Origin: Pedosphaera parvula Ellin514
GTDB lineage: Bacteria; Verrucomicrobiota; Verrucomicrobiia; Limisphaerales; JADJPG01
Direction of reading: 5' to 3'
Assembly (NCBI GenBank): GCA_943332515.1
Contig: CALQPR010000001.1
Span: 43,598-107,597, forward strand
DNA length: 64,000 nt
Part shown: positions 2-54,096 of the stretch, in pieces
How the letters are laid out: the number at the start of each line of letters is the position of its first letter
How positions within the stretch are numbered: the first letter of the stretch is position 1
Made by a program: the position numbers and the translations under genes
The notes under the pieces: model-generated
The model's input: the letters and a program-made list of their open reading frames with translations, nothing else
What the model was told of the DNA's origin: nothing
Databases searched by the model: none

Positions 2-1072
2 CAGGCGCGCGTCGCGCTCGGTGGACCGGATCGGCTTGTGAAGATCTTTTCCACGAGGACGGGCGAAGTGGAGCACAAGATCAAGAAGCACACGGACTGG
101 GTGACGGCGCTCGCCTTCAGCCCGAATGGCGAGATGCTGGCTAGCGGCGACCGCAACGGTGGGCTCACGGTGTGGGACGCGGACAGCGGGCAGGAGTTGT
201 TCACGACGGCTGGTCACAAGAGCGCGGTGACGTCCGTGAGCTGGCGGACGGACTCGAAGCTGGTCGCGTCGTCGAGCGAGGATGGCACGGTGAAGCTGTG
301 GGAATCGAGCGAGGGCAAGCAGTCGAAGACGTGGAACGCGCACGGCAGCGGCGTGCTGTGCGTCGCGTATTCGCGGGACGGGAGGTTCGTCACCTGTGGT
401 CGCGATGGCACGGTGGGGACGTGGAGCGCAGACGGGACGAAGCTGAAGTCGCTGGACTTCGCCGGCGAGGTGGCGCTGCGCTGCGCGTGGTCGGACGATC
501 AGGCACGGGTGATGGCGGGTGATTACGCGGGGAATGTTTTTGTGTGGGATGCGAAGTCGGGGAAGAAGCTCGGTTCGTTGGACGCGAATCCGAAGCTGCT
601 GTCCGAGCGAGTCGCCGACGTGCTGTCGCGCATCGCCGAGATTCAAGCGCGTGGCGACAAGCCTTCGCCATTGCTATCGGATGCTTCGCGGCAACTGGCC
701 GGAGCGGAGTCGGCGGTGGGCAAAGCACGGGCGGACGCGGACAAGGCGCAGATTGAGTTTAACCGGGGCGCAGCAGAGGTGGTGCGGTTGAAGGAGCTCG
801 CTGCGAAGCCGGGTCCGCCAGCGGACGTTGAGGCGCAATTGGCCGCCGCTCGTGTGGCGCGAGAGAAAGCCCGCACGTGGCGAGTAGAGGCAACGAACTC
901 CGTCGAGACATTGGTGCTGAAGCTGTCGGGGACCAAGACGAAGTTTGAGGAGTTGAAGAAGGCGCAGGATTCGGCGGCGGAGCTTGCGTTGGCGCAGGCC
1001 GAGTTGGAGAAGCTGAAGCGCGCGCAGGCGATGGCGCAGAAATTGGCTCCGCGACAGCAAACGAAGCGGTAA
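2..1072 (+). CDS. WD40-repeat protein with C-terminal coiled-coil; 5' end lies outside the window
   Basis: The reading frame is open from nt 2 (QARVALGGPDRLVKIFS...). Repeated WD40 signatures are present (HTDWVTALAFSPNG, GDRNGGLTVWD, SEDGTVKLWE, GRDGTVGTWS). The last ~130 aa are Ala/Glu/Lys-rich and heptad-like. Confidence 0.8.
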   Translation, partial: QARVALGGPDRLVKIFSTRTGEVEHKIKKHTDWVTALAFSPNGEMLASGDRNGGLTVWDADSGQELFTTAGHKSAVTSVSWRTDSKLVASSSEDGTVKLWESSEGKQSKTWNAHGSGVLCVAYSRDGRFVTCGRDGTVGTWSADGTKLKSLDFAGEVALRCAWSDDQARVMAGDYAGNVFVWDAKSGKKLGSLDANPKLLSERVADVLSRIAEIQARGDKPSPLLSDASRQLAGAESAVGKARADADKAQIEFNRGAAEVVRLKELAAKPGPPADVEAQLAAARVAREKARTWRVEATNSVETLVLKLSGTKTKFEELKKAQDSAAELALAQAELEKLKRAQAMAQKLAPRQQTKR

Positions 1073-1108
1073 GCCGGAGGTTGTTCCAGCGTTCAGGGGA
1101 ATTGCAAA

Positions 1109-3451: not shown

Positions 3452-3544
3452 GCCCGCCGCGCTTTCGGAAAAGCAGCTGCGTTTTAACATGCCAGAATCG
3501 AGCACAAGCTTGACTTGCAGCGGCAAACTTTGAACATCGCGCCG

Positions 3545-4564
3545 ATGGCCTCACTCTTCACCATTCACAGCGAAATCCGCTACGAGATTGTTCGGAAAAT
3601 CTACGAGGGCGGAATGGGAATCATTTACGAAGCCGAGCAGCATGGCGCGCGGAACTTCGTGAAGCGACTTGCCATCAAAGTCATTCGCCAGAGCTACGCG
3701 AGCCAGAAGCAGTTCATCGAGAATTTCATCGGCGAGGCAAAACTGGTCGCGGATCTCATCCACACGAACATCGTCCAGACGTATCATCTCGGGGAATCTA
3801 AGGGGATTTACTACATCGCGATGGAGCTGATTCGCGGCGTGAACCTGGAGCAGTTCGCGGATCAGATGCGCGACAAGAACCGGATTCTCCCGGTGGACGT
3901 CGCGGTGTTCATCACGAGCCGTGTCTGTCGCGGGCTGGCCTATGCGCATGCGAAGTGTGACAAGGATGGAAACCTGCTTGGCCTGGTGCATCGCGACGTG
4001 AGCTTCAAGAATATCATGGTCGCCTTTGAAGGAGACGTGAAGCTGACGGACTTCGGCATCGCGAAGGCGCGGGGCTTCCTGATCGACAACGAAGGCGAAG
4101 TGGTCGCGGGCAAGGCGGATTACATGAGCCCGGAGCAGGCGAACTTTCAAATCACCGACAAGCGCTCGGATTTGTTTTCCGTGGGTGTGGTGCTCGAGCA
4201 TCTGTTGCTCGGTCATAATGTTTTCAAGGGGCCGTCCCCTGAGGAGTCGCGCAAGCTGGTGATGAACATGCCGATTCCGGATTTTCGCACGCTCGATGGG
4301 CGTATCGATGACCGGCTCAACGAGATTCTGCACAAGGCGCTCTCGCGGGACTTGAACAAGCGCTACGCGAGCGCGGACGACATGCTGTTCGATCTCGAGC
4401 ATTACATTTATCACTCTGGCTACGGACCGACGAACGAGACCTTGGGCAAGATGATCCGCGAGCTGTTCGGCCACAATACGAAGCTGGCGGGTCAGGATGG
4501 CAGGGGCAGCACGGAGTTGCTCGATAAGACCGCTCGCGCCACTTCCACCATCAAGCGCAAATGA
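3545..4564 (+). CDS. Ser/Thr protein kinase (Hanks type), kinase domain only
   Basis: Gly-loop EGGMGIIYEA, AIKVI lysine, HRDVSFKN catalytic loop, DFGIAKA, SPE. The ORF opens at TTG 3515; ATG 3545 is preferred. The stop overlaps the next gene's start (ATGA at 4561-4564). Confidence 0.85.
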   Translation: MASLFTIHSEIRYEIVRKIYEGGMGIIYEAEQHGARNFVKRLAIKVIRQSYASQKQFIENFIGEAKLVADLIHTNIVQTYHLGESKGIYYIAMELIRGVNLEQFADQMRDKNRILPVDVAVFITSRVCRGLAYAHAKCDKDGNLLGLVHRDVSFKNIMVAFEGDVKLTDFGIAKARGFLIDNEGEVVAGKADYMSPEQANFQITDKRSDLFSVGVVLEHLLLGHNVFKGPSPEESRKLVMNMPIPDFRTLDGRIDDRLNEILHKALSRDLNKRYASADDMLFDLEHYIYHSGYGPTNETLGKMIRELFGHNTKLAGQDGRGSTELLDKTARATSTIKRK

Positions 4565-5451
4565 AGGCGAAATCCTCGGTCGTAAAACTGGGCCTGCTCC
4601 AGACGTCCTGTTCCGCAGATCCCAAGGCGAACCTCGCGAAGACGCTGGCCTTCGCCGAGCGTGCGGCGAAACAAGGTGCGCAAATCATCTGCACCCAGGA
4701 GCTGTTTCGCTCGCAGTATTTTTGTCAGGACGAAGACCACGACAACTTCAAGCTGGCGGAGCCCATTCCAGGGCCGAGCACGGCGGCGTTTCAGAAGCTC
4801 GCGAAGAAACATTCCGTTGTCATCATCGCCTCGCTGTTCGAGAAGCGCGCGTCCGGCGTCTATCACAATACGGCGGCGATCATTGATGCGGACGGCTCGT
4901 TGCTGGGGATGTACCGGAAGATGCACATCCCGGACGACCCGCTGTTCTACGAGAAGTTCTATTTCACTCCGGGCGATCTGGGATTCCGTTCGTGGCGGAC
5001 GCGCTATGGAAAGATCGGCGTGCTGATTTGCTGGGACCAATGGTATCCGGAAGGCGCGCGTCTCACCGCGATGCAGGGCGCGGAGATTCTCTTTTACCCG
5101 ACGGCCATTGGCTGGCATCCGAAGGAAAAGGCCGAGTACGGCACGAATCAACATGGGGCTTGGGAGCTCATCCAGCGCAGCCACGCGGTTGCGAATGGTT
5201 GTTACGTCGCGGCGATCAATCGCATCGGGCTGGAGCAGCCGATTGGTGGCGATGGATTGGAGTTCTGGGGACAGAGCTTTGTGGCCGGCACCTCGGGGCA
5301 GATCCTTTCCAAAGCCAGCGTGAACAAGGAAGAAATTTTGCTGGTGCCCGTTGACCTGAGCAAGGTGGACGTGACGCGCACGCACTGGCCTTTCCTGCGC
5401 GACCGGCGCATCGATGCGTACGGTGGGCTGACGCAGCGATTGATCGACTAA
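4561..5451 (+). CDS. aguB: N-carbamoylputrescine amidase (carbon-nitrogen hydrolase family)
   Basis: Nitrilase-superfamily pattern over the full length: ICTQELF, HNTAAIIDADGSLLGMYRKMHIPDDP, GVLICWDQWYPE, ILFYPTAIGW. Confidence 0.85.
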   Translation: MKAKSSVVKLGLLQTSCSADPKANLAKTLAFAERAAKQGAQIICTQELFRSQYFCQDEDHDNFKLAEPIPGPSTAAFQKLAKKHSVVIIASLFEKRASGVYHNTAAIIDADGSLLGMYRKMHIPDDPLFYEKFYFTPGDLGFRSWRTRYGKIGVLICWDQWYPEGARLTAMQGAEILFYPTAIGWHPKEKAEYGTNQHGAWELIQRSHAVANGCYVAAINRIGLEQPIGGDGLEFWGQSFVAGTSGQILSKASVNKEEILLVPVDLSKVDVTRTHWPFLRDRRIDAYGGLTQRLID

Positions 5452-5473
5452 CCCCAATCGTTTTCCTGCCGCC

Positions 5474-6328
5474 ATGAGCAAATCGACTGCCTGGATCACC
5501 GGTGCGGGAGGTTTGATTGGCAGTCATCTGGTGCGGGCGGCGGCACAGCATGCGCCGGAGTGGAGCGTGGTTTCCGTCACACGGGAGAAGGTCGATCTCT
5601 GCGATGACGCGGCCGTCGCCCGATTGTTTGCAAGTGAGCGTCCGCAACTGATCCTTCACTGCGCGGCCATCAGCAGGGTGGGCGATTGCCAGGCGAATCC
5701 TGAGCTCGCTGAGGCGGTGAACGTCCACGCGACGCGCCATCTTTGCGAGCTGGGAGCGGAGATTCCGCTCGTGTTCTTCTCGACGGATCTCGTCTTCGAT
5801 GGCTTGAAGGGTGGCTACGTGGAGGCGGACCCGGTGAATCCCATCAATGTTTACGCGGAGAGCAAAGTCCGCGCGGAGGAGTCGGTTCTGAAGAACCCAC
5901 GGCACGTCGTCGTCCGCACTTCTTTGAACGCCGGTGTCTCGCCCACTGGAAACCGGAGCTTCACCGAGGACATGCTTCGCGCGTGGGAACGTGGTCAAAC
6001 CCTCAGCTTGTTCAAAGACGAGTTCCGAAATCCAATCCATGCGAGTGTCACTGCCCGCGTGGTTTGGGAGCTGGTGAGATTGAATCAGCCGGGGCTTTAC
6101 CATCTCGCTGGCGCAGAGCGGCTGTCGCGATGGGAGGTCGGCCAGCTCGTCGCCACGCGCTGGCCTCATGCCCAGGCGCGAATGAATCCGGGTTCGCTTC
6201 GTGATTATCAGGGGCCGAGACGTTCTCCAGACACCTCGCTCAATTGCGCGAAGCTTCAGTCGGTGCTCTCGTTTCCGCTTCCCGGCCTGCGCGACTGGCT
6301 GGAGCAAAACCCTCAAGAGCCTGTTTGA
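5474..6328 (+). CDS. RmlD-type NAD(P)-dependent sugar reductase (dTDP-4-dehydrorhamnose reductase-like SDR)
   Basis: N-terminal TGAGGLIGSHL Rossmann motif; STDLVFDG ... NVYAESKVRAE (YxxxK) is typical of the RmlD substrate-binding domain. Confidence 0.75.
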   Translation: MSKSTAWITGAGGLIGSHLVRAAAQHAPEWSVVSVTREKVDLCDDAAVARLFASERPQLILHCAAISRVGDCQANPELAEAVNVHATRHLCELGAEIPLVFFSTDLVFDGLKGGYVEADPVNPINVYAESKVRAEESVLKNPRHVVVRTSLNAGVSPTGNRSFTEDMLRAWERGQTLSLFKDEFRNPIHASVTARVVWELVRLNQPGLYHLAGAERLSRWEVGQLVATRWPHAQARMNPGSLRDYQGPRRSPDTSLNCAKLQSVLSFPLPGLRDWLEQNPQEPV

Positions 6329-9524: not shown

Positions 9525-9941
9525 ATGCGCACGACATGTTCCAAGCATTTGTTTTTTGCGTTGGCGGCGATACCAATCGGCGCAGCTAGTGGGTTTGCTT
9601 GTGCAGCAGTCGTTTTTTCAGTCTGCCGATTACTTGATTGGTTCTCCAGACCGAGCACTCCCTTGGAAGACATCGGGCTTACTTGGTATCATGTGATTGG
9701 GGTTGCCGTTTATCATGGCGCATCCATAGGCGCGGCGTTTTTACCGGGCGCATATTTACTTTTTTTACGACACATTAGAGAAGGTCAAGTGAGGCGAGTT
9801 CTCTCATGGCTCTTTTTCGGTGTTTTAGTCGCTGGCGTTTTAGCATCGCCGTTGCGAGATTTCTTCTCGCTTGTTGCCGCAGCGGTTGGATTTTGGATAG
9901 CTGTGTGTTATGCACGACGAAAGACATTGGTAGCCTCCTGA
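9525..9941 (+). CDS. Hypothetical small membrane protein in an AT-richer patch
   Basis: Three or four hydrophobic segments (FFALAAIPIGAASGFACAAVVF; VIGVAVYHGASIGAAFLPGAYLLF; WLFFGVLVAGVLA; LVAAAVGFWIAVCY). Composition is visibly AT-richer than the flanks. Start and reality are uncertain. Confidence 0.45.
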   Translation: MRTTCSKHLFFALAAIPIGAASGFACAAVVFSVCRLLDWFSRPSTPLEDIGLTWYHVIGVAVYHGASIGAAFLPGAYLLFLRHIREGQVRRVLSWLFFGVLVAGVLASPLRDFFSLVAAAVGFWIAVCYARRKTLVAS

Positions 9942-10190
9942 ATAACAGAGCACATAAGTTATTGGTTTGGAACGAGGGCCATGTTCAATGCCTTCGCTTG
10001 GTTTTGCAGGTTCTTTAACCGCCGCGCGGTGCTGGCTTCGGTGATCGCAAAGGCTTTCTTCCCATCGTAGGGCTGCTCGCTCACCCGTTCCTCGCGCTCT
10101 GGTTGCCATCCACACGTCCCGTGCGCCGAGTCACTTGGTCATGGTGTCGAGGTGGTGTAGCATCTCTCCATGTAAACACCGGGACAATAT

Positions 10191-10613
10191 GAGATTTCCA
10201 CCGACCGCAGCCGTCTGGACCTCGCGCTGATTCACGATTATCTAGGTTCGTCGTATTGGGCGCAGGGCATTCCGCGAGCGGTGGTGGAGCGGTCCATCCA
10301 GCACTCGCTTTGTTTCGCCGCATACCTGGATGGGCGGCAGATTGGCTTCGCCCGGGTGGTGACGGACTACGCCACCTTCGCGTATGTGGCGGATGTGTTC
10401 GTGGTGCCGGAGCATCGTGGTCGTGGGATTTCGAAGCTGCTCCTGCGCGCCATTCTGGAGCACCCGGAGTTGCAGGGGCTCAGGCGGTTCTTGCTGGCGA
10501 CGCATGATGCTCATGGACTCTATGCGCAGTTCGGGTTTCAGCCGCTGGCGCATCCCGAGCATTTCATGACGGTTCACAAGCCGGATGTGTATCGCGGCGA
10601 AAATCACGGATGA
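10191..10613 (+). CDS. GNAT family N-acetyltransferase, start codon unresolved
   Basis: QIGFARVVTDYATFAYVADVFVVPEHRGRGISKLLL acetyl-CoA motif. Family-like N-terminal sequence (EISTDRSRLDLALIHDYLGSSYWAQG) extends upstream of the first canonical in-frame start (GTG 10281). See the corresponding finding. Confidence 0.8.
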   Translation, partial: EISTDRSRLDLALIHDYLGSSYWAQGIPRAVVERSIQHSLCFAAYLDGRQIGFARVVTDYATFAYVADVFVVPEHRGRGISKLLLRAILEHPELQGLRRFLLATHDAHGLYAQFGFQPLAHPEHFMTVHKPDVYRGENHG

Positions 10614-24983: not shown

Positions 24984-25061
<78 letters not shown>

Positions 25062-25651: not shown

Positions 25652-25782
25652 AGCGACGGGTGCAGACACGAATTCCACGAAGCGGCCACGGATGAACGCA
25701 GATGAGCTGGACGGGACGGAGCGTCCCTTCTCGTCGGCAGTGCGCGTCCTCGAGTGGGGCCGGCAAAAAACCAGCGCGAGCG

Positions 25783-34215: not shown

Positions 34216-34357
34216 TTAGCGATAGGGGAATAGAAGTAATTCTCCGCCGCGCCACGGTCCGTATTTGTCCTACCCTCCCAGGCATCCTTCGCCCGTGATT
34301 TCGATTTTACATCGAGTGCGCCCGTGTATCCTTGGCCCCCCGGCTTGACTCCAGATT

Positions 34358-35014
34358 ATGCAGACCAAAGTCATCGAACTGCGCCAGTTGCTCGCGGAAC
34401 GCTTTACGAACGCGCGCCGGACGGGTGTTTCCAGCCTTGCCGACGTGGTGCCGTCGGGCGTCGCGACGTTGGATGGCTTGCTCGATGGCGGCTTGCCTCG
34501 CGGCGGTTTCACGGAACTCGTCGCTGAAGGTCACGGCTCCGGCAGCGCGCAGTTCCTGCATCTCTGGCTCCAACGCGTCGCGGCGGACGGCCAATTCCTC
34601 GCGCTGATCGATGGTGCGGACAGCTTCGATGCGACGACGGAAGCGCCCGAAGTTCTCGCGCGCCTGCTCTGGGTGCGTTGCCGCAAGGCCGACGAAGCGC
34701 TTCAAGCCGCCGACATCATTCTGCGCGACCGCAACTTCCCGCTCGTCGCGCTCGATCTGCGGATGAATCCGCCCGCGCAGCTGCGGAAGATTTCCTCCGC
34801 AGTCTGGCATCGCTTCAAGCGGCTCCTTGAACAATCTCAAGCCACGGTCGTGGTCGTGACGTCTCAGCCGTTGGTCAGCGGAGCGAGTTGCCGCGTGCGC
34901 GTGGAGGCCGGGCTCGGGCTGGAAGCGTTGAAGGAATCGCGGCTGGAGAAGCGCCTGCGGTTCACGTTGCTGCGCCAGGCGGGTTTGGAAACGGGCGCAG
35001 CTCAGGCCGGATGA
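34358..35014 (+). CDS. imuA: ImuA (RecA/SulA-like component of the ImuA-ImuB-DnaE2 mutasome)
   Basis: SGVATLDGLLDGGLPRGGFTELV..., LALIDGADSFD, LLWVRC. Sits directly upstream of imuB with a 3-nt gap. Confidence 0.8.
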   Translation: MQTKVIELRQLLAERFTNARRTGVSSLADVVPSGVATLDGLLDGGLPRGGFTELVAEGHGSGSAQFLHLWLQRVAADGQFLALIDGADSFDATTEAPEVLARLLWVRCRKADEALQAADIILRDRNFPLVALDLRMNPPAQLRKISSAVWHRFKRLLEQSQATVVVVTSQPLVSGASCRVRVEAGLGLEALKESRLEKRLRFTLLRQAGLETGAAQAG

Positions 35015-35017
35015 ACC

Positions 35018-36490
35018 ATGTTCGCCGTCGTTCACATCCCGCGTTTCGCGTTGCAAGCTGCGCTGCGGCATCAGCCGGAACTGTGGCCGAAGCCGGTCGC
35101 TCTCATCGACCCGGATCAAACCACGCCGCGCGTGGTCGAGGTGAACGATGTCGCGCTGAAGTCCGGCATCGCGCTCGGCCAGACCGCGACGCAGGCGCTC
35201 GCCCGCTGTCGTGACGTCATTATTCGTCATCGTTCGCTGAAGCAGGAAGCGGCGTCCACGCAGGCCGTGCTGCAATCCGCCGACAGTTTTTCGCCCCACA
35301 TCGAGGCCACCGCGCCCGGTGTCTGCACGCTCGATCTGCGTGGGCTCACAGTCTTGAAGAACGCGGATGCAGCGAAGGTCGCGGCGTGGGCGGCGCGGCT
35401 GCGCGAATCGATCGTTCGGCTGAACCTGCGTCCGCGCGTGGGCATCGGGCCGACGCCGAACGTCGCACGACACGCGGCGCGCTGGACGGAGACGGTCGAA
35501 ATCGTCGGCGACGCGCGCGCGTTCATCGCGACGCTGCCGGTCGCGGCGCTGGAGCCGTCGAGCGACGTGGAGTTGATCCTGCACAAGTGGGGCATTCGCA
35601 CGGTGGGCGAACTGATCGCGCTCGGGCAGGAAGCGCTGGCGGATCGGTTGGGGCTGGAGGCGTTCGCGCTTTTCGCTGCTGCATCGGATAATTCCGTGCG
35701 CCTGCTCAAGCTCGTGCGACCGGAGGAACGCTTCGAGGAGTCGTTCGACTTCGAGCAACCCGTCGAGACGATGGAGCCGCTGTTGTTCCTGTTGAGACGG
35801 TTCGTGGATCAGATCGGGCAACGACTGGAAACCACCGGTTTCGTGGCGGAGTTGGTGACGTTGCGGCTGCGGTTGGACTCCGGCGAAGTCATCGAGCGCC
35901 GACTGCGCGTGCCACAGCCGACGCGCGAAGCGAACGTGCTGTTCCGCATGTTGCAGACGCATCTGGAGTCGCTGCGCACGGAGTCGTCCATCGTGATGGT
36001 GGCGTTGACGGCGGAGCCGACGCGACCGCAGCAAAAGCAGTTCGGCCTGTTCGAAGTGGCGTTGCGCGATCCGCAGCAGTTCCAGGAAACGCTCGCGCGA
36101 CTGAGCGCGCTGGTCGGCGCGGAACGCGTCGGCACGCCGGTGGTGGAGGACACGCATCGGCCGGACGCCTTCAAGCTGGTGCCGCCGGATTTCGAGAACG
36201 CGCCAGTGCCGGTGAAGGCTGCGAATCTTCTGGCGACGACACCGATCCGGCGCTTGCGTCCGGCGCTCGCGGCTCAGGTGGAAGGCGAGAAAACGCCGGT
36301 GGAGCTTCAGTGTTCCATCGCGAACGGGAAGCTGAAGATCGCGGTCGGGCCGTGGCGCAGTTCCGGTCAATGGTGGGAGGCGGGCAAGGTGTGGTCGCGC
36401 GATGAGTGGGACGTGGCGACGCGCGACGGCAAGGTGCTGCGTTTGGTGAAACGTCCGGATGGCTGGTTCGTGGAAGGGATGTTGGACTAG
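35018..36490 (+). CDS. imuB: ImuB (catalytically inactive Y-family polymerase-like protein)
   Basis: MFAVVHIPRFALQAALRHQPELW... N-terminus typical of ImuB; ~490 aa; located in the imuA/dnaE2 context. Confidence 0.85.
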   Translation: MFAVVHIPRFALQAALRHQPELWPKPVALIDPDQTTPRVVEVNDVALKSGIALGQTATQALARCRDVIIRHRSLKQEAASTQAVLQSADSFSPHIEATAPGVCTLDLRGLTVLKNADAAKVAAWAARLRESIVRLNLRPRVGIGPTPNVARHAARWTETVEIVGDARAFIATLPVAALEPSSDVELILHKWGIRTVGELIALGQEALADRLGLEAFALFAAASDNSVRLLKLVRPEERFEESFDFEQPVETMEPLLFLLRRFVDQIGQRLETTGFVAELVTLRLRLDSGEVIERRLRVPQPTREANVLFRMLQTHLESLRTESSIVMVALTAEPTRPQQKQFGLFEVALRDPQQFQETLARLSALVGAERVGTPVVEDTHRPDAFKLVPPDFENAPVPVKAANLLATTPIRRLRPALAAQVEGEKTPVELQCSIANGKLKIAVGPWRSSGQWWEAGKVWSRDEWDVATRDGKVLRLVKRPDGWFVEGMLD

Positions 36491-36503
36491 AACAGAGCTT
36501 TGA

Positions 36504-36622
36504 AACCACGGATGAACACGAATGGACACGGATATGAATGAAGAAATATGTGCGTGGGACATTTCTGAAAGCCAAACCAGTAAGTCTGCCGAATCTGTGT
36601 TCATCCGTGTCCATCCGTGGTT
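36504..36622. repeat. Large imperfect palindrome built from GGATG[A/G]ACAC decamers
   Basis: The 30-nt arm 36504-36533 pairs with 36593-36622, the last 30 nt of the 32-nt right-arm string 36591-36622 (26 Watson-Crick, 2 G-T and 2 A-C pairs by hand alignment) around a ~57-nt AT-richer loop. Confidence 0.75.
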
Positions 36623-36640
36623 AAGAAATTCCTCAAAGTG

Positions 36641-37420
36641 ATGAAAAAGCAGCTCGTCATGTTCGCGCCGAAGAAGCCGCTGGTGGAGCGGTTCGGCGCG
36701 GAGTTCTTCCGGCAGGTTCCAGAACGGCCCGGCGTTTACCTCCTGTGCGGCGCTGGTGCGGGCGTGCTCTACGTCGGCAAGGCGAAGAATTTGCGCCAAC
36801 GTCTCGGCGGTTATCGGTCGGCGAATCTCGATGTCGTTCCGCGCAAGCTCCGCCGTCTGCTCTGTGCGGTGGAACGGATTCTCTGGGATGAATGCGTGGA
36901 TGAATCCGCCGCTCTGGAGCGCGAGCGTGAATTGCTGCTCACACTGCAACCGCGCTTCAACACCGTCGGCGTCCGTCCGGCGCGACGAGAATTGATCGGC
37001 TGGCGTGCAGCGAACGACGCGGTGGCGGTGGGCTGCGGTCAGTTGGTGAATGATTGGCCGGGGCGATTCGGTCCGACTGTGGGCGCGACGAGGGTTCACG
37101 CCGCGTTGCTACGGCTGCTGTGGTGGACGCTGCATCCGGCGGCGCATTGGGCGGAGATGCCGCGCGCGTTGCGGGCGGGACGATGTGCTCGCGAGTGGAG
37201 CTTTGCATCGGCGGAGGCGAACGAAGCCGGTGAACGCCTGCGCCTGTTCTTCCGTGGCGAATCGCCGGAGCTGGTGGAGTGGTTTGTGTGGAGCGCGGCG
37301 CGGCGCCCGGCGTTCGAGCGTGAATGGATCGCGCAGGACGCTGGCTGGTTGCTGGAGTTTTACGAGAAGGCGTGTGTGGAACCGGTGGAGGAGGGCGATG
37401 TCGCAATCGAGCTACATTGA
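36641..37420 (+). CDS. UvrC/Cho-type GIY-YIG nuclease domain protein with an uncharacterised C-terminal domain
   Basis: PGVYLLCGAGAGVLYVGKAKNLRQRLGGY...ERELLLTLQPRFN matches the UvrC N-terminal GIY-YIG signature. The remaining ~160 aa are unassigned. The 3' end overlaps dnaE2 by 23 nt. The ORF opens at GTG 36617. Confidence 0.75.
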   Translation: MKKQLVMFAPKKPLVERFGAEFFRQVPERPGVYLLCGAGAGVLYVGKAKNLRQRLGGYRSANLDVVPRKLRRLLCAVERILWDECVDESAALERERELLLTLQPRFNTVGVRPARRELIGWRAANDAVAVGCGQLVNDWPGRFGPTVGATRVHAALLRLLWWTLHPAAHWAEMPRALRAGRCAREWSFASAEANEAGERLRLFFRGESPELVEWFVWSAARRPAFEREWIAQDAGWLLEFYEKACVEPVEEGDVAIELH

Positions 37421-40400
37421 ACTTCACGCACGAAGCGCCTTCAGCTTTTTGCGCGGCGGCTCGCTGCCGGAGCAATTGGCGCAGCAGGCGGCGGCGTTGG
37501 AGCTCCCGGCGCTGGCGGTGTGCGATCGAATGGGCGTCTATGGCGCGCCGCGATTGACGAGCACGGCGAAGGAGACGGGCATCCGTCCGATCATCGGGTC
37601 CGAGCTGGTGATGGAAGACGGCTCGGTGCTGCCCGTGCTCGTCGAGTCGCGCACCGGTTACCAGAACCTCTGCGCGCTGCTGACGCAGGCACATCTGCGC
37701 GCGCCGAAGGGCGAGGGCGTGGTGCGCTGGGAGGAATTGCCGGAGTTCACGGAAGGGCTGGTGGCGTTGACCGGCGATGATGAAGGGCCGTTGGTCCGAA
37801 GCCTTCTGCAAACCGGCGCGCTGCCAGAACCGGGCGCGTGTGTGCAGCGATTGGTGCGAACGTTCGGCGAGCGGAATGTGTTCGTGGAAATCCAGCGGCA
37901 TCTGCAACGCGGGGAGGAACGCATCAACGATCGACTGATGGATTTGGCGCATGCACATCGGTTGCCGCTGCTGGCGACGAACGGCGTGATGCACACGACG
38001 CCGGTGGGGCGTCAGATCGCGGACGTGTTCACCTGCCTGCGGCATCACACGACGCTCGATGGCGCGGGGCGGTTGCTGTCGCTGAATCGCGAGCGGCATC
38101 TCAAGCGCGGCGACGAGATGGTGGCGTTGTTCGCGGATCTGCCGGAGGCGATTCTCAACACGCAACGGCTCGGGGAGCGGCTGAGCTTCACGCTGGCGGA
38201 TCTGGGCTATGAGTTCCCGAAGTTCCCGGTGGGCGCGGGCGAAACGATGGAGGGCGTGTTGCGCGAGTTGACGCTGCGCGGGGCGCGCGGACGTTACGCG
38301 GGCGAGATTCCGGAAAAGGTTCGCCTGCTGCTGGAGAAGGAGCTGACGCTAATCAACAAGCTCGGATTCGCCGGATACTTTCTCATCGTGGCGGACCTCG
38401 TCCGGTTCTGTCGCGAGAACGATATTCTCGCGCAAGGTCGCGGCAGCGCGGCGAACAGCGCGGTGTGTTTCTGCCTCGGCATCACGGCGGTGGACCCGCT
38501 GAAGTTCAACGTGCTGTTCGAGCGGTTTCTCAGCGAGAGCCGCAAGGGCTGGCCGGATATCGACATCGATTTGCCGAGCGGCGAACGGCGCGAGCGGGTG
38601 ATCCAAGAAGTGTATCGGCGCTACGGTCCGCATGGCGCGGCGATGACCGGCGCGGTGATTACGTATCGCGGGCGCAGCGCGGCGCGGGAGCTGGGCAAGG
38701 TGCTCGGGTTTCCCGTGGATGTGCTGGAGCGGTTCTCCAGCTTGTTTGCCAACGGCGATTTTCCGCACACGCTCGATTTGCTGGCGCAGATGGAGCAGGC
38801 GGGTCTGGCGCGGACGCATCCGCGCGCAGTGGTGTTTGCGGAGCTGTATCAACAGATGCGCCGGCTGCCGCGACATCTCGGGCAGCATTCGGGCGGGATG
38901 ATTATTTGTCAGGGCGCGCTCAATCGCGTGGTCCCGCTGGAGAATGCCGCGATGCCCGGGCGCGTGGTGGCGCAGTGGGACAAGGACGATTGCGAGGAGC
39001 TTGGCATTATCAAGGTGGACTTGCTTGGGCTGGGGATGATGGCGGCGTTGCAGGATATGGTGACGCTGACGACCCAACGCGGGCGCGCGGTGGATCTGGC
39101 GCAGTTGCCGGAGAACGATCCGGAGACGTTCGCTCTGATGCAGCGGGCGGATACGATCGGCGTGTTCCAGATCGAGAGCCGCGCGCAGATGGCGACGTTG
39201 CCGCGCATGAAGCCGGTTTGCTTCTACGACGTGGTTGTGGAGGTGGCGATTATCCGGCCCGGGCCCATCGTCGGCGATCTGGCGCATCCGTATCTGCGCC
39301 GGCGCAACGGCGAGGAGGAGGTGACTTACTACGCGCCGCAACTGAAGCCGGTGCTGGAGCGCACCCTGGGCGTGCCGCTGTTTCAGGAGCAGATGCTGGA
39401 GATGGCGATGGTGATGGCCAGGTTCTCAGGCGATGAAGCGGAGGATCTGCGTCGCGCAATGAGCTTTCATCGGTCGGAGGAGCGGATGCGTCACGCGGAG
39501 GAACGGTTGCGCGCGGCGATGGATCGGGCGGGCGTGAAGCCGGAGATCGTGGAGAAGATCGTGGGCGCGGTCAGCTCGTTCGCGCTCTACGGCTTTCCGG
39601 AATCGCACGCGATCAGCTTCGCGCATCTGGCGTATGCGAGCGCGTATCTGAAGACGCATCGCGCGCCGGAGTTTTACTGCGCGCTGCTGAACAACCAGCC
39701 AATGGGGTTCTATTCGCCCGCGACGCTGGTGAAGGACGCGAAGCGGCACGGCGTCAATGTGCGCCCGGTGTGCATCGCGCGTTCGGACTGGTTCACGAAC
39801 ATCGAGCCGGACGGCGCGCTGCGGCTGGGTTTTCGCCAAGTGCAGGGGCTGAATCATGGGCGTGCCGAGGGTCTGTTGGCGGCGCGACAGCAGAAGCCGT
39901 TTACCTCGATGGATGATTTGCGGCAGCGGACCAAGCTAGCGAAGGAAGAGCTGCGGACGCTGGCGGAGATCGGTGCGTTGAACGGCCTGAGCGAACATCG
40001 GCGGGCGGCGTTGTGGGAGGCGGAGCGGACGGTCAGGGCGGGGGATCTGTTTTCGGAGTCCGGGGGTCACGATCAAAGCTCCAAACCCCAAGATCCAAGC
40101 ACCAGCGGGATGCGAAAGGCGGGACACGCATCGCCGTTGCCGAGGATGGATGCGTTTGAGCGGACGTTCGCGGATTATTCTGGGCTGCGGCTGACGACGG
40201 GACCGCATCCGATGGCGCTGGTGCGTGAACGATTGGCGGACGTGTGGCGCGCGGGTGATTTGAAGCAGGCGAAGAACGGCGACTACGTGCGCGTGGCGGG
40301 ACAGGTGATCTGTCGTCAACGACCGGGCACGGCGAAGGGTGTTTGTTTCGTTAGCCTCGAGGACGAGACGGGCATCTGCAATGTGATCGTGGCGCCGGGC

Positions 40401-40559
40401 TTGTTCGAGGCGGAGCGGCTGAAGATTACGACCGAGCGGTTTCTCTTGATGGAAGGGCTGGTGCAGAGCCGGCACGGGACGATTCACATCCAGGCGCGGC
40501 GGGTGGAGGCGCTCGTTTATGCGGGGCTGGATGAAGTCGAGTCACACGACTTCCATTGA
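37398..40559 (+). CDS. dnaE2: Error-prone DNA polymerase III alpha-type subunit DnaE2 (ImuC)
   Basis: YIELHARSAFSFLRGGS PHP-domain start, polymerase core blocks (GRGSAANSAVCFCLGIT, PDIDIDL, GGMII), C-terminal OB fold; ~1050 aa. The ORF in the track is over-extended upstream to 37050. Confidence 0.92.
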   Translation: MSQSSYIELHARSAFSFLRGGSLPEQLAQQAAALELPALAVCDRMGVYGAPRLTSTAKETGIRPIIGSELVMEDGSVLPVLVESRTGYQNLCALLTQAHLRAPKGEGVVRWEELPEFTEGLVALTGDDEGPLVRSLLQTGALPEPGACVQRLVRTFGERNVFVEIQRHLQRGEERINDRLMDLAHAHRLPLLATNGVMHTTPVGRQIADVFTCLRHHTTLDGAGRLLSLNRERHLKRGDEMVALFADLPEAILNTQRLGERLSFTLADLGYEFPKFPVGAGETMEGVLRELTLRGARGRYAGEIPEKVRLLLEKELTLINKLGFAGYFLIVADLVRFCRENDILAQGRGSAANSAVCFCLGITAVDPLKFNVLFERFLSESRKGWPDIDIDLPSGERRERVIQEVYRRYGPHGAAMTGAVITYRGRSAARELGKVLGFPVDVLERFSSLFANGDFPHTLDLLAQMEQAGLARTHPRAVVFAELYQQMRRLPRHLGQHSGGMIICQGALNRVVPLENAAMPGRVVAQWDKDDCEELGIIKVDLLGLGMMAALQDMVTLTTQRGRAVDLAQLPENDPETFALMQRADTIGVFQIESRAQMATLPRMKPVCFYDVVVEVAIIRPGPIVGDLAHPYLRRRNGEEEVTYYAPQLKPVLERTLGVPLFQEQMLEMAMVMARFSGDEAEDLRRAMSFHRSEERMRHAEERLRAAMDRAGVKPEIVEKIVGAVSSFALYGFPESHAISFAHLAYASAYLKTHRAPEFYCALLNNQPMGFYSPATLVKDAKRHGVNVRPVCIARSDWFTNIEPDGALRLGFRQVQGLNHGRAEGLLAARQQKPFTSMDDLRQRTKLAKEELRTLAEIGALNGLSEHRRAALWEAERTVRAGDLFSESGGHDQSSKPQDPSTSGMRKAGHASPLPRMDAFERTFADYSGLRLTTGPHPMALVRERLADVWRAGDLKQAKNGDYVRVAGQVICRQRPGTAKGVCFVSLEDETGICNVIVAPGLFEAERLKITTERFLLMEGLVQSRHGTIHIQARRVEALVYAGLDEVESHDFH

Positions 40560-51718: not shown

Positions 51719-54096
51719 TACTGGATTTGGATGAGTTCGTGGGCACTGAGGAGCATTTGGGCGTAACGGTGCCAACGTTCCGGTGCCGGGTTCTTGCCCA
51801 GCCATTCGCTGGCGAGCTGAAGCTCAGCGGGCTCGGGAGGACGGGAGTAGAGCCGCTTGTAGGTGTCGCGAAGCTGATGCGCAAGGGGTCCTGACAAGCC
51901 GCGCATCCAGTCGCCCAACACCTGGGCCCGGCCGGTCATGAACGGGCTGTTCATCATGAAAAGGTATTGCTGCGGCACGGTGCTGGTGACGCGCTTCTCG
52001 GCGGACGAGACGGCGGCGGGCGCATCGAACAGGCGCAGGAAGCGGTCGGCAGGATAGATGTCTCCTGTGCGACTGGTGCTGGCATAGACCGTCCGGCGTT
52101 TGCTCTCCCAGATCTGATTGGCGGACGGGCCGCCAATGGTTCGATCCAGTTCTCCGGTGACCGCCAGCAGCGAGTCGCGCCAGACTTCGACTTCGAGCTT
52201 TCGCGGGTTCATCCGCCAGAGAAGCCGGTTGTCGCCGTCGCGGGTGAACTTCGCCTTGTCAAAATGGCTGCTCATCTGCCAGGTGGACGAGAGCAAGATC
52301 TGGCGGTGAAGGCGCTTCATCGACCAGCCATGCTCGATGAAGTCGGCCGCGAGCCAGTCCAGCAGTTCCGGGTGCGTGGGCTTTTCGCCGAGCACACCGA
52401 AGTTGCTCGGCGTTCGCACCAGCGCTTCGCCGAAGTGCCAGCCCCACACGCGATTGACGATGACGCGAGCAGTGAGCGGGTTGTCGGAAGCGACGACCGA
52501 GCGCGCAAGTTCCAACCGGCCGCTGCCCTTCGTGTAGGGCGCCGCTTCTTTGCCGGCGACAATTTCCAGAAACCGCCGCGGCGCCATTTCGCCCGGTTTG
52601 CGGAGATCGCCGCGCAGCGCGACAGGCATGTCGACGCTGCCGGAGTCCTTCAGTCCATGCAGGGTCGCATACATCGGCGGTGCGGACTTCTTCCGCCGCT
52701 CGAGTTCGCCGCGCAGTTCGGCCAGAGACTTCTTCGCCTCTTCATCGAGCGTTTTCTCCACTTCCGGCCTCTTGAGGTTCAGCCGTTTCGTTGCCGCGTG
52801 GAGCCACTCGTCGATCTGCTTCTCCTGATCCTTGATCGCCTGCTGGCCGACTTTGAACGCATCGACTTCAGCCGGTGGAACGACCGGAAAATTCTCCCTC
52901 TTGGTGTTCCGGAATACGCCGGCGATGGCGTAGTAGTCCTTGGTCGTAATGGGGTCGAATTTGTGATCGTGGCAGCGCGCACAGGCGACGGTGAGTCCCA
53001 GGAGACCTCGGGAAAACGTGTCGACGCGATCGGCGAGCGTCTCGGCCTCGGCTTGGGCCTGAGCCTCGGGATCACCGCCATCGCCCACGTAGGTCGGACC
53101 GACGGCGAAAAATCCCGTGCCGGCAGGGTCAGGCTTTTCTGCCAGAAGATCCCCGGCGATCTGCTCGGTGAGAAATCTGTCGTAGGGAAGGTCAGCATTG
53201 AAGGAGCGCACCACCCAGTCGCGATAGCGCCACGTGTTGGGCAGGGGCTGGTCACCAAAGCCGCCATCAGCCTCGCTGTAGCGGGCCACGTCCAGCCAGT
53301 GGCGCGCCCAGCGTTCGCCGTAGTGTTCGGAGGCCAGGAGCGAGTCTACGACTTTCGCGAAGGCGTCCGAACGTCGATCGTTCAGGAACGCCGCGACCTG
53401 CTCGGGCGTGGGCGGCAGACCAATTAAATCCAGATATGCCCGGCGGATCAGCGTGCGCTTCTCGGCTGCGGGATTCGGCGTCACGCCCGCCGCCTCGAGC
53501 CGCGCGAGCACGAAACGGTCAATGTCTCCCTTCACCCAACTGGCACGCCTGACCTTGGGTGGTTTCGCTGCGACGATGGGGCGGAAAGACCAGTGTTCGC
53601 GCCGGAACTTTTCCCAGTCGTAAGCCTCCGCCTTGGTGGATTTCTCTGGCCTGCCCGCGGCCGCGTCCGAACCCGGCCACGGAGCGCCCATCTCCACCCA
53701 CTTCGTCAGCGCGGCGATGTCGGCGTCGGCAAGCTTCTGCTTCGGCGGCATTGCGGTGTCGGGATCGCCGTAGTTCACGGCCTGGCTCAGCAGGCTCTTC
53801 GCGGGATTTCTTGGGACAATGGCCGGCCCGCTGTCGCCGCCTTTCAAGACCCCCGCGCGGCTGTCGAGACGCAGCCCGGCCTTGACCTTGGTCGCTTCCG
53901 CCGAGTGGCACGAGTAGCAGTGCGTGGCCAGCACCGGCCGGACTTTGTTCTCGAAGAATTCGATCTGCTCCGATGTGAAGGTGTCATCCTTTGCACCCAA
54001 GTTTGTCGCGGCGAGCATGAGCAACATGAACACAACCGCCCACGCCCCGGTCGGGATCGAGGCAGGCACGGACTTCATGGGCCGAGGTGCTGACAT
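51718..54096 (-). CDS. PSCyt2 + DUF1549 + DUF1553 (PSD) protein
   Basis: FFENKVRPVLATHCYSCHS; RRAYLDLIGLPPT; CARCHDHKFDPI; C-terminal DUF1553 blocks. Confidence 0.9.
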   Translation of the reverse strand: MSAPRPMKSVPASIPTGAWAVVFMLLMLAATNLGAKDDTFTSEQIEFFENKVRPVLATHCYSCHSAEATKVKAGLRLDSRAGVLKGGDSGPAIVPRNPAKSLLSQAVNYGDPDTAMPPKQKLADADIAALTKWVEMGAPWPGSDAAAGRPEKSTKAEAYDWEKFRREHWSFRPIVAAKPPKVRRASWVKGDIDRFVLARLEAAGVTPNPAAEKRTLIRRAYLDLIGLPPTPEQVAAFLNDRRSDAFAKVVDSLLASEHYGERWARHWLDVARYSEADGGFGDQPLPNTWRYRDWVVRSFNADLPYDRFLTEQIAGDLLAEKPDPAGTGFFAVGPTYVGDGGDPEAQAQAEAETLADRVDTFSRGLLGLTVACARCHDHKFDPITTKDYYAIAGVFRNTKRENFPVVPPAEVDAFKVGQQAIKDQEKQIDEWLHAATKRLNLKRPEVEKTLDEEAKKSLAELRGELERRKKSAPPMYATLHGLKDSGSVDMPVALRGDLRKPGEMAPRRFLEIVAGKEAAPYTKGSGRLELARSVVASDNPLTARVIVNRVWGWHFGEALVRTPSNFGVLGEKPTHPELLDWLAADFIEHGWSMKRLHRQILLSSTWQMSSHFDKAKFTRDGDNRLLWRMNPRKLEVEVWRDSLLAVTGELDRTIGGPSANQIWESKRRTVYASTSRTGDIYPADRFLRLFDAPAAVSSAEKRVTSTVPQQYLFMMNSPFMTGRAQVLGDWMRGLSGPLAHQLRDTYKRLYSRPPEPAELQLASEWLGKNPAPERWHRYAQMLLSAHELIQIQ

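Follow-up and report, generated by a model that had tools for sequence, protein, structure and literature searches.

Mutasome cassettes of Verrucomicrobiota with a UvrC-derived GIY-YIG endonuclease gene between imuB and dnaE2

The canonical ImuABC cassettes of Caulobacter, Pseudomonas, Myxococcus and the mycobacteria encode imuA, imuB and dnaE2 in this order and with tight spacing, and their ImuB carries a β-clamp-binding-type motif. Among excision nucleases, E. coli Cho (YdjQ) is a 295-residue, SOS-induced second 3'-incision enzyme of nucleotide excision repair (NER), in which a UvrC-type GIY-YIG domain is joined to a C-terminal extension; its gene stands alone under LexA control, outside any polymerase operon. 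The two activities have been brought together conceptually for Caulobacter MmcB, an SOS-induced PD-(D/E)XK nuclease hypothesized to partner translesion synthesis (TLS) polymerases in crosslink repair, that is, a dedicated damage-inducible endonuclease creating substrates for these polymerases (PMC9578287). In non-replicating Caulobacter, the substrate of DnaE2 is the NER-generated gap (PMC8102061).

The window, by which we mean the whole 64-kb stretch of DNA analyzed here, holds the three canonical genes in the same order, and its ImuB shares the clamp-binding-type motif; it differs in possessing a fourth gene between imuB and dnaE2 (Table 1). Three published surveys do not describe such a gene: neither "GIY" nor "UvrC" occurs in PMC6511836 or PMC12926913, and PMC3765255 mentions neither in the context of imuB. 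Unlike MmcB, which has an unrelated fold and is encoded outside the polymerase operon, the product of the fourth gene is a GIY-YIG protein.

Table 1 Features of the mutasome cassette in window coordinates
Feature	Position	Strand	Description
Degenerate motif copy GGTCCGTATTTGTCC	34256-34270	+	~90 nt before the imuA ATG; candidate operator
imuA	34358-35014	+	218 aa, RecA-like accessory protein
imuB	35018-36490	+	490 aa, Y-family-fold protein; Pfam IMS and IMS_C
ImuB QFGLF	36038-36052	+	residues 341-345; β-clamp-type motif
Inverted-repeat insertion, MITE/REP-like	36491-36640	+	~150 nt; separates imuB from the nuclease gene
UvrC-derived (Cho-like) GIY-YIG endonuclease gene	36641-37420	+	259 aa; PF01541
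QLVMF peptide	36650-36664	+	residues 4-8; β-clamp-binding-type, within Q-L-x-L-F-P-P-x-R-P-L
GIY-YIG catalytic domain	36728-36961	+	residues 30-107; Y33, Y44, K47, R54, E95, N107
Family-specific C-terminal α/β domain	36974-37390	+	residues 112-250
dnaE2 (imuC)	37398-40559	+	1053 aa, error-prone C-family polymerase

The open reading frame (ORF) table places the four genes head to tail on one strand, with a 3 nt gap between imuA and imuB, a 150 nt gap between imuB and the nuclease gene, and a 23 nt overlap (37398-37420) in which the dnaE2 ATG falls within the nuclease gene. DnaE2 matches the "error-prone DNA polymerase" model NF004225 at 1199 bits (cut-off 939) and contains the Pfam domains PHP, DNA_pol3_alpha, finger, HHH_6 and OB. 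ImuA matches NF033429 at E 1.6e-12, which is below the curated cut-off, and is 52-60% identical to the product of the gene preceding imuB in five other loci (L084, L085, L089, L103, L104). A DnaE2-type polymerase, a Y-family ImuB and a RecA-like ImuA are thus encoded in tightly spaced, co-oriented genes, and the ORF table, Pfam and NCBIfam bear out the preliminary description of an imuA-imuB-dnaE2 cassette with an extra GIY-YIG gene before dnaE2, as well as the 23 nt overlap it had reported at 37398. A GTG at 36617 was considered as the nuclease start and rejected, since homologues back the ATG at 36641; the protein of a relative at 85% identity (locus L092) opens with MEKQLVMF at the imuB stop.

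The nuclease scores 30.3 bits on Pfam PF01541, where 22.6 is the cut-off, and the UvrC/Cho signatures previously read from its sequence, PGVYLL, LYVGKAKNLRQRLGGY and ERELLLTLQPRFN, are all found in the ORF. Homologues number 304. The six catalytic residues are unchanged across 31 sequences and align, in order, with Y19, Y29, K32, R39, E76 and N88 of Thermotoga maritima UvrC. For the catalytic domain, no structure or sequence matches better than the N-terminal half of UvrC: the nuclease profile finds 1yd6 and 1ycz, two structures of the N-terminal domain of UvrC, at 2.8e-13, and Foldseek superimposes the nuclease model on 1yd6 with a TM-score of 0.83 and an rmsd of 1.1–1.2 Å. Judged by these alignments, the 259-residue ORF is a UvrC-derived endonuclease with an intact active site, for which activity is predicted. 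The protein is not itself a UvrC; its score against TIGR00194 is 47.2 bits (cut-off 285.45), and Pfam detected neither UvrC_RNaseH_dom nor HHH in it, both of which are present in a control UvrC (L034). Across 18 UvrCs, four linker cysteines (C161, C178, C186 and C190) show little or no variation, and the nuclease-family columns aligned to this linker hold no conserved cysteine.

The closest NCBIfam match, at 5.2e-21, is to actinobacterial DnaQ-GIY-YIG fusions (PRK07883/NF005906, "DEDD exonuclease domain-containing protein"). This match scores 74.6 bits (cut-off 495) and joins nuclease residues 7-217 to profile positions 193-409 of 563, that is, to the GIY-YIG module plus the stretch after it; the DEDD 3'-5' exonuclease domain was not found in the nuclease, the match beginning only at profile position 193. 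In architecture the protein resembles Cho, which is similarly short, likewise lacks the RNase H-like 5'-incision domain and the HhH2 domain of UvrC, and, like the present family, is associated with the DNA damage response. In a neighbor-joining tree, the family falls with E. coli Cho and further short UvrC-like proteins, apart from UvrC. The alignment to Cho covers the GIY-YIG domain only (84 columns, 35% identity by hhalign), and the score against the Cho model NF007833 is 23.5 bits, under its cut-off of 367.

This likeness opens a tentative reading in which the protein is an independent backup NER nuclease, a Cho analogue that handles bulky lesions together with UvrAB and UvrC and has neither a physical nor a mechanistic link to ImuB-DnaE2, its place in the operon serving damage-inducible transcription only. 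The Cho-like architecture, which retains only the N-terminal half of UvrC, and the placement in the tree both speak for it, as does the annotation of one family member (P0039) as "nucleotide excision repair endonuclease" by one source.

The preliminary description had found nothing recognizable in the ~160 residues after the catalytic domain. This holds insofar as there is no solved homologue: the region is confidently folded in the AF2 model (pLDDT 91.7, pTM 0.84), for which no fold match was found among PDB structures, and the domain alone has no NCBIfam match. The region is nevertheless a conserved, family-specific domain, for which 403 clusters at 50% identity were counted; the best 150 matches to it are all proteins of at most 346 residues. 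Its tail is weakly UVR-like. The last two helices bear an F-x-G...F-E-x-x-W-x-x-x-D signature, and the whole-nuclease profile is co-linear with UvrC over 221 columns (E 3.5e-24), in an alignment that places an FLxG...FE...D segment where UvrC has its UvrB-binding (UVR) module; once the GIY domain is left out, the match between the tail and the UvrC UVR region is marginal (P = 0.0047-0.009). The Pfam UVR model is silent at E ≤ 0.01 even for the control UvrC (L034).

At the other end of the protein we noticed a feature new for this family, an invariant or nearly invariant N-terminal peptide of the form Qxx[LM][FLW], whose sequence conforms to the Q-L-x-L-F or QLxLxL type of β-clamp-binding pattern and which is putatively clamp-binding. 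Its glutamine is kept in 108 of 108 family sequences, and the strict motif occurs in 90 of 110 family members versus none of 61 UvrCs; Qxx[LM]F was likewise not found at the N-terminus of E. coli Cho. Residues 1–6 have a pLDDT below 50 in the AF2 model, in keeping with a flexible tail. All 16 ImuB relatives examined carry Q[FLY]xLF at the position of the ImuB motif. A peptide shared in kind with ImuB and absent from Cho and UvrC is not what a backup NER nuclease would lead one to expect. It would suit a processing nuclease, tethered to the clamp and active on primer termini or flaps, which would trim strands that are stalled, mismatched or displaced on behalf of a non-proofreading DnaE2 and would make no lesion incision in a UvrB complex. 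For such an enzyme one could also cite the C-terminal domain, which has no convincing UvrB-binding homology, and the PHP metal ligands of DnaE2, which on direct reading look degenerate (ELHARS vs HxHxHS, CDR vs DH). We consider this role unlikely, given that the best PDB and NCBIfam matches make the catalytic domain specifically UvrC-type, that GIY-YIG enzymes are endonucleases and not exonucleases, and that no domain for recognizing flaps or junctions was detected.

Surveying synteny, we found 17 independent loci, spanning 44-88% identity, in which imuB and dnaE2 enclose the nuclease gene, and it is thus not specific to one strain. At these junctions the genes usually overlap or stand less than 15 nt apart. 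The spacing from imuB is mostly -4 to +13 nt, and in most of these loci the end of the nuclease gene runs 1–23 nt into dnaE2; L082, L092 and L093 share the identical 23 nt overlap. The dN/dS of the nuclease gene is 0.13-0.15, equal to that of DnaE2 and ImuB. Conserved position, overlapping junctions, purifying selection and invariant catalytic residues agree with the earlier view of the gene as an integral cassette member and not a passenger. From the position in 17 loci, the junction overlaps, the DnaE2- and ImuB-like selection and the invariant catalytic residues, we predict that the nuclease gene is co-transcribed with imuA-imuB-dnaE2, and its translation is probably coupled to that of dnaE2. 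By these comparisons, the nuclease gene is now a fixed fourth gene of the predicted imuA-imuB-dnaE2 operon in one Verrucomicrobiota lineage. The nuclease-bearing cassette is common to many related uncultured Verrucomicrobia.

The gene is missing from some related cassettes. The four ImuB relatives in which its absence was checked (56-63% identity) all lie in canonical imuA-imuB-dnaE2 loci devoid of the nuclease gene, and these interleave with nuclease-bearing cassettes in the ImuB tree; the mutasome thus does not require the nuclease, a point that also sits well with a backup NER role. This patchy presence, the frequency of GIY-YIG domains among homing endonucleases and a palindrome immediately upstream of the ORF in the window could together indicate a selfish or recently domesticated homing-type endonuclease, the palindrome being a remnant of its mobility. 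The palindrome is present as the preliminary description had reported; its arms, of 30 nt each (36504-36533 and 36593-36622), are 87% complementary, and the RNA hairpin of the element has a predicted energy of -52.5 kcal/mol (z = -6.5), with no Rfam family match. Its proposed tie to a selfish insertion was not supported: the element is missing from most nuclease-bearing cassettes, L092 included, where the junction reads TGATG and the imuB stop overlaps the nuclease start, and the same terminal repeats surround a 308 nt spacer in L081. By its sequence and distribution, the palindrome belongs to a small inverted-repeat insertion of its own, independent of the nuclease gene; as this hairpin now lies between imuB and the nuclease gene, coupling to imuB is lost in the window. 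Moreover, the nuclease gene co-diverges with its neighbors over 44-88% identity under purifying selection, PADLOC gave no matches, and Pfam returned PF01541 only, with no homing-type (I-TevI-like) DNA-binding modules. We reject an identity as a homing GIY-YIG endonuclease on the Pfam result, the synteny and the selection, and regard a selfish origin as very improbable and already largely refuted.

Overall, family genes neighbor error-prone polymerase sets in 19 of 26 informative loci, in two unrelated architectures. In the second architecture, seen in two other metagenome-assembled genomes (L005 and L006), lexA and a PolY::DnaE fusion gene point away from the family gene; the shared spacer holds LexA-like TGTnn-N4-nnACA palindromes, and in L006 a further gene, for an XPD/DinG-like helicase, overlaps the family gene at its stop. 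Seven loci carry the gene alone in housekeeping contexts (L002, L003, L087, L097, L100, L102 and L111), which indicates that the protein is able to work without being encoded beside the mutasome. These stand-alone members favor backup NER; shared regulation alone, on the other hand, explains neither the recurrence beside polymerase sets of two architectures nor the tight, conserved stop/start overlaps with dnaE2.

Building on the observed gene order, conservation, selection, intact active site and motif conservation, we propose, with a probability of roughly one half, that a Cho-like, clamp-tethered single-incision nuclease supplies substrates to ImuB-DnaE2. Like Cho, the enzyme would keep only the 3'-incision (GIY-YIG) half of UvrC, to which its own C-terminal domain and the clamp-type peptide have been added. 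As to clamp binding, UvrB dependence, substrate and hand-off to DnaE2, we infer the following course. The operon would be induced after DNA damage; the clamp motif, possibly together with a UVR-like contact to UvrB, would bring the nuclease to damaged DNA, where it would cut one strand and leave a 3'-OH. Since 3' incision alone leaves the lesion in place, a partner for the 5' cut or exonucleolytic removal is assumed. The resulting nick or excision gap would often lie opposite a second lesion or an unhooked crosslink, for which the proposal requires translesion synthesis, and clamp-bound ImuB-DnaE2, a product of the same mRNA, would fill it. The arrangement suggests a coupling, in these bacteria, between damage incision and the mutagenic filling of gaps. 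A bolder version, which we hold doubtful, makes the nuclease a fourth subunit or obligate partner of ImuABC that shares the β-clamp with ImuB in tool-belt fashion and cuts for DnaE2, its incision creating the primer terminus or gap for synthesis. If true, one operon would encode a self-contained "cut-and-copy" mutagenic repair machine, and damage-induced mutagenesis would begin with a programmed incision and not with replication stalling.

Regulation was explored upstream of imuA. The published Verrucomicrobia LexA box, TGTTC-N4-GAACA, was not found near imuA, in agreement with the earlier inspection; one-mismatch matches occur three times in the 64 kb, at chance level and distant from imuA. 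In place of this box, relatives carry a conserved motif upstream of imuA, GGACnGCCnTTGTCC (GGAC-N7-GTCC). Searched with a pattern of 13 specified bases in 110 fetched loci, exact copies occur only upstream of imuA (L084, L085/86, L109, L110), and near-matches lie at the equivalent relative position in L104, L107, L108, L089, L103 and L082. The degenerate window copy has three mismatches and is not significant alone; its position relative to imuA supports homology, and the motif is a candidate operator.

The gene order, the overlap between the nuclease and dnaE2 genes, the intergenic palindrome and the GIY-YIG identity reported in the preliminary description were all borne out by the ORF table, Pfam and NCBIfam searches and a repeat scan, with the GIY-YIG profile match of the 259-residue ORF exceeding the gathering score. 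The four genes are co-oriented, the last 23 nt of the nuclease gene are shared with the start of dnaE2, and the 150-nt spacer between imuB and the nuclease gene holds an inverted repeat with 30-nt arms. PADLOC revealed no relation to defence systems in the window, and a single tRNA was the only Rfam match over its whole length. By inspection, the PHP metal ligands at the DnaE2 N-terminus look degenerate, reading ELHARS and CDR; active PHP domains carry HxHxHS and DH at the metal-ligand positions. Judged from these ligands, the window DnaE2 probably lacks intrinsic proofreading.

Features of the nuclease-bearing cassette in the window and of related loci (L numbers, fetched loci of relatives)
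Locus	Feature	Position	Strand	Evidence or remark
Window	imuA	34358-35014	+	NF033429 match 1.6e-12, under its cut-off (NCBIfam)
Window	imuB	35018-36490	+	IMS, IMS_C (Pfam)
Window	nuclease gene, 259 aa	36641-37420	+	GIY-YIG, 30.3 bits vs gathering score 22.6 (Pfam)
Window	dnaE2	37398-40559	+	NF004225 'error-prone DNA polymerase', 1199 bits, above cut-off 939 (NCBIfam)
Window	DnaE2 N-terminus, PHP ligands	37398-37560
Window	inverted-repeat insertion, 150 nt	36491-36640		arms 36504-36533, 36593-36622
L081	inverted-repeat insertion, 308 nt	865-1172
Window	solitary arm-like copy of the element	25686-25706
Window	tRNA	24984-25058		Rfam
Window	GGAC-N7-GTCC, degenerate	34256-34270
Window	GGAC-N7-GTCC, near-perfect	53814-53828		inside 792-aa ORF
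L084	GGAC-N7-GTCC, exact	5642-5656
L085	GGAC-N7-GTCC, exact	5463-5477
L109	GGAC-N7-GTCC, exact	4208-4222
L110	GGAC-N7-GTCC, exact	4190-4204
L006	1523-aa polymerase fusion	640-5211	-	IMS, IMS_C; PHP, DNA_pol3_alpha, finger, HHH_6
L006	lexA	5254-5877	-
L006	palindrome, lexA-nuclease spacer	5880-5893		TGTAT-N4-ATACA
L006	helicase, 814 aa	6831-9275	+	DEAD_2, HBB, Helicase_C_2
L005	polymerase ORF	3291-5261	-	IMS, IMS_C, PHP
L082	cassette without imuA upstream of imuB	6094-6307
L101	115-aa ORF	1329-1676		resembles ImuB C-terminus
L101	nuclease-family gene	1689-2462
L107	surroundings of nuclease-free cassette	143-964, 9626-10255

The nuclease gene is not a passenger in the cassette, as had been argued from the overlap. 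A synteny survey of imuB-dnaE2 junctions, limited to loci for which DNA or a gene table was available, found the gene in this junction at 17 independent loci rather than in one strain: the window, L001, L081, L082, L084, L085, L089, the contigs of protein match P0080, L092-L096 and L103-L106 (match P0099, checked in the same way, is a stand-alone gene). Across these loci the nuclease is 44-88% identical to that of the window, and ImuA, ImuB and DnaE2 diverge in parallel. At most junctions the nuclease start lies -4 to +13 nt from the imuB stop and its 3' end runs 1-23 nt into dnaE2, the 23-nt overlap of the window recurring in L082, L092 and L093. The nuclease dN/dS of 0.13-0.15 (window versus L092 and L081) resembles the values for DnaE2 (0.14-0.15) and the ImuB C-terminus (0.16). 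The L082 cassette, whose nuclease is 57% identical, has no imuA ahead of imuB, where a gene of opposite orientation is found instead. In L101, nothing but a 115-aa ORF similar to the ImuB C-terminus (final 60 residues, 36% identity) precedes the nuclease-family gene, and the 480 nt left after it hold no dnaE2; the locus may represent either a cassette in decay or an independent pair of ImuB C-terminus and nuclease.

The palindrome had been called consistent with an alternative, a domesticated or selfish GIY-YIG insertion, a link that comparison of the junctions does not support. In L092, with a nuclease 85% identical to that of the window, the imuB TGA overlaps the nuclease ATG as TGATG and the element is absent, while the same inverted repeats, AACCACGGATGAACAC...GTGTCCATCCGTGGTT, bound the insertions that lie precisely between imuB and the nuclease gene in the window and in L081. 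The palindrome is thus a small, independently inserted inverted-repeat (MITE/REP-like) element, unrelated to the origin of the nuclease gene. Its RNA is predicted to fold into a stable hairpin (-52.5 kcal/mol, z = -6.5) without a match in Rfam, and the element may now affect how strongly one half of the operon is expressed relative to the other. A solitary arm-like copy lies elsewhere in the window.

The only PDB matches of a 31-member family profile were the UvrC N-terminal domain structures 1yd6 (2.8e-13) and 1ycz, and the AlphaFold model of the nuclease (mean pLDDT 89) matches 1yd6 at a TM-score of 0.83 and an rmsd of 1.1-1.2 Å. Residues Y33, Y44, K47, R54, E95 and N107, invariant in the alignment of the 31 members, align with Thermotoga maritima UvrC Y19, Y29, K32, R39, E76 and N88, which we take to be the UvrC catalytic residues (Truglio et al. 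2005). Because all six are invariant, the nuclease is expected to be catalytically active. It scores far under the cut-offs of the curated Cho and UvrC models of NCBIfam, and Escherichia coli Cho can be aligned with it over the GIY-YIG domain alone; by sequence it is Cho-like in design, yet outside both curated families.

The C-terminal 150 residues are conserved over their full length within the family and, modelled alone, adopt a confident fold (pLDDT 91.7, pTM 0.84). A fold search with this domain found no structural neighbour in the PDB, and the whole model found a partner for the GIY-YIG domain only. Since the LYVGKAKNL pattern is common to the family and UvrC, the metagenome scan used the C-terminal alignment; an HMM of this domain alone retrieved 403 clusters at 50% identity, 154 of them at E <= 1e-10, and the best 150 matches are all of at most 346 aa, the domain spanning roughly residues 110-260. 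The region is therefore a family-specific domain and no fragment of a larger known protein. The earlier statement that the remaining ~160 residues match nothing holds for the PDB, Pfam and NCBIfam; it does not hold for the family, which shares the domain throughout, or for the tail, which is weakly UVR-like. Compared at full length with the N-terminal halves of 18 UvrCs, the family profile was co-linear along 221 columns (E 3.5e-24, probability 99.6%), setting the family's F-x-G...F-E-x-x-W-x-x-x-D opposite the FLxG...FE..A...RD of the UVR (UvrB-binding) segment, whereas the conserved UvrC cysteines have no counterpart. With the GIY-YIG domain removed only the tail still aligned to UvrC, weakly (P = 0.009), and the same comparison with 114 family and 61 UvrC sequences gave a marginal P = 0.0047. 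Given this marginal match, an assignment as the UvrC linker/UVR region was lowered to a weak resemblance; with the tail alone aligning weakly and NCBIfam and Pfam blank, docking of UvrB is no more than possible.

Ahead of the catalytic domain, the flexible N-terminal tail (pLDDT < 50) carries Q-L-x-L-F-P-P-x-R-P-L (MKKQLVMFAPKK in the window). The glutamine is present in 108 of 108 family sequences, and 109 of 110 have L, M or F at position +3, the same fraction having F, L or W at +4; 90 of the 110 family members have the strict form Q[LIVMF]x[LMF][FLW], against none of 61 UvrC N-termini, and E. coli Cho, unlike the family, lacks such a motif. QL[SD]LF is a form of the bacterial beta-clamp-binding pentapeptide, and Hda bears QLSLPL at a similar N-terminal placement. 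From its form, the peptide is a candidate beta-clamp-binding motif. A Q[FLY]x-LF motif lies at or near residue 341 of ImuB in the window and 15 relatives, presumably the site of the essential clamp motif of mycobacterial ImuB.

Taken together, a model of incision-coupled translesion synthesis can be proposed. The nuclease would be induced together with the ImuABC mutasome, recruited through the clamp with a possible contribution from UvrB, and would nick damaged DNA to leave a 3'-OH; clamp-bound ImuB-DnaE2 would then fill the resulting nick or excision gap, which would need translesion synthesis if a further lesion or an unhooked crosslink lay in the template strand. [quoted passage not shown] Speculatively, an ImuA of the mycobacterial type, for which a preprint describes helicase and 5'-exonuclease activity (10.64898/2026.08.14.744951), could widen the nick.

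UvrC/Cho-type nucleases and ImuABC cassettes are each known as a kind; the novelty here lies in the fixed combination of the two, in a nuclease of this type bearing a clamp-type motif, and in its C-terminal domain. Surveys of the gene neighbourhoods of Y-family and C-family polymerases (PMC6511836, PMC12926913 and PMC3765255) mention no gene of GIY-YIG or UvrC-like type in such operons, and full-text literature searches for Cho, GIY-YIG or UvrC with dnaE2 or imuB, and for clamp-binding motifs in GIY-YIG nucleases, returned nothing relevant. The subject bears on how ImuABC mutasomes gain access to DNA: by joining a UvrC-type nuclease genetically with ImuB and DnaE2, this operon serves as a natural experiment, in agreement with the Caulobacter gap work, and lends itself to direct tests of whether translesion synthesis and mutagenesis are coupled to incision. 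The Cho-like nuclease family to which the gene belongs, ~400 clusters at 50% identity whose C-terminal domain is new, had no earlier description in the literature searched.

An error-prone polymerase set stands beside the nuclease gene in 19 of 26 informative loci, four further loci being too short or ambiguous to be included; stand-alone copies in housekeeping surroundings number seven (L002, L003, L087, L097, L100, L102, L111). Four of four ImuB relatives (56-63% identity), picked because their contigs were unmatched to nuclease-bearing contigs, have a canonical imuA-imuB-dnaE2 with no intervening gene. The stand-alone copies and these nuclease-free cassettes keep alive the main rival explanation, in which the protein is a backup NER nuclease of Cho type and has only its promoter in common with the mutasome; we regard this as less likely than the model above. 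Cassettes with and without the nuclease interleave in a rough ImuB neighbour-joining tree (clean split in 0 of 100 bootstraps); in the nuclease neighbour-joining tree, cassette copies form one group, with stand-alone L097 and L100 nested inside it, apart from the remaining stand-alone and lexA-linked copies. One old capture followed by several losses is the simplest reading of these trees, which are too weak to be sure.

A motif scan confirmed the noted absence of the published Verrucomicrobia LexA box, TGTTC-N4-GAACA, near imuA, and sigma-70 and terminator scans upstream of imuA and between the genes yielded nothing useful. Cassettes with and without the nuclease gene carry GGACnGCCnTTGTCC (GGAC-N7-GTCC) 80-160 nt upstream of imuA, the exact form occurring in ~1 Mb of fetched loci only at this position, in four independent loci, and a degenerate copy occupying the homologous position in the window. 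It is a candidate operator of a damage regulator, possibly other than LexA. A near-perfect match inside a window ORF was set aside as chance.

In L005 and L006, contigs of Verrucomicrobia metagenome-assembled genomes (L006 from subdivision 3), the nuclease-family gene is divergent from lexA. The spacers hold perfect palindromes, TGTATGAATATACA in L006 and, ~17 nt upstream of the nuclease start in L005, TGTCTATTTAGACA (TGTCT-N4-AGACA); both share the 5-4-5 geometry of the reported LexA box but differ in the inner bases. Directly downstream of lexA, L006 encodes a Y-family polymerase fused to a DnaE-type C-family polymerase, a fusion of which the survey PMC12926913 makes no mention; the equivalent region of L005 is split into several ORFs, one of which was scanned, and the splits may be sequencing frameshifts. 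An XPD/DinG-like helicase with a weak N-terminal PD-(D/E)XK match overlaps the L006 nuclease stop, and nuclease and helicase would form a gene pair opposite lexA and the polymerase fusion. Repair functions also seem to cluster in L107, where a nuclease-free imuA-imuB-dnaE2 cassette has the NHEJ genes for Ku and LigD at one end and, at its other end, a gene of the uracil-DNA glycosylase family.
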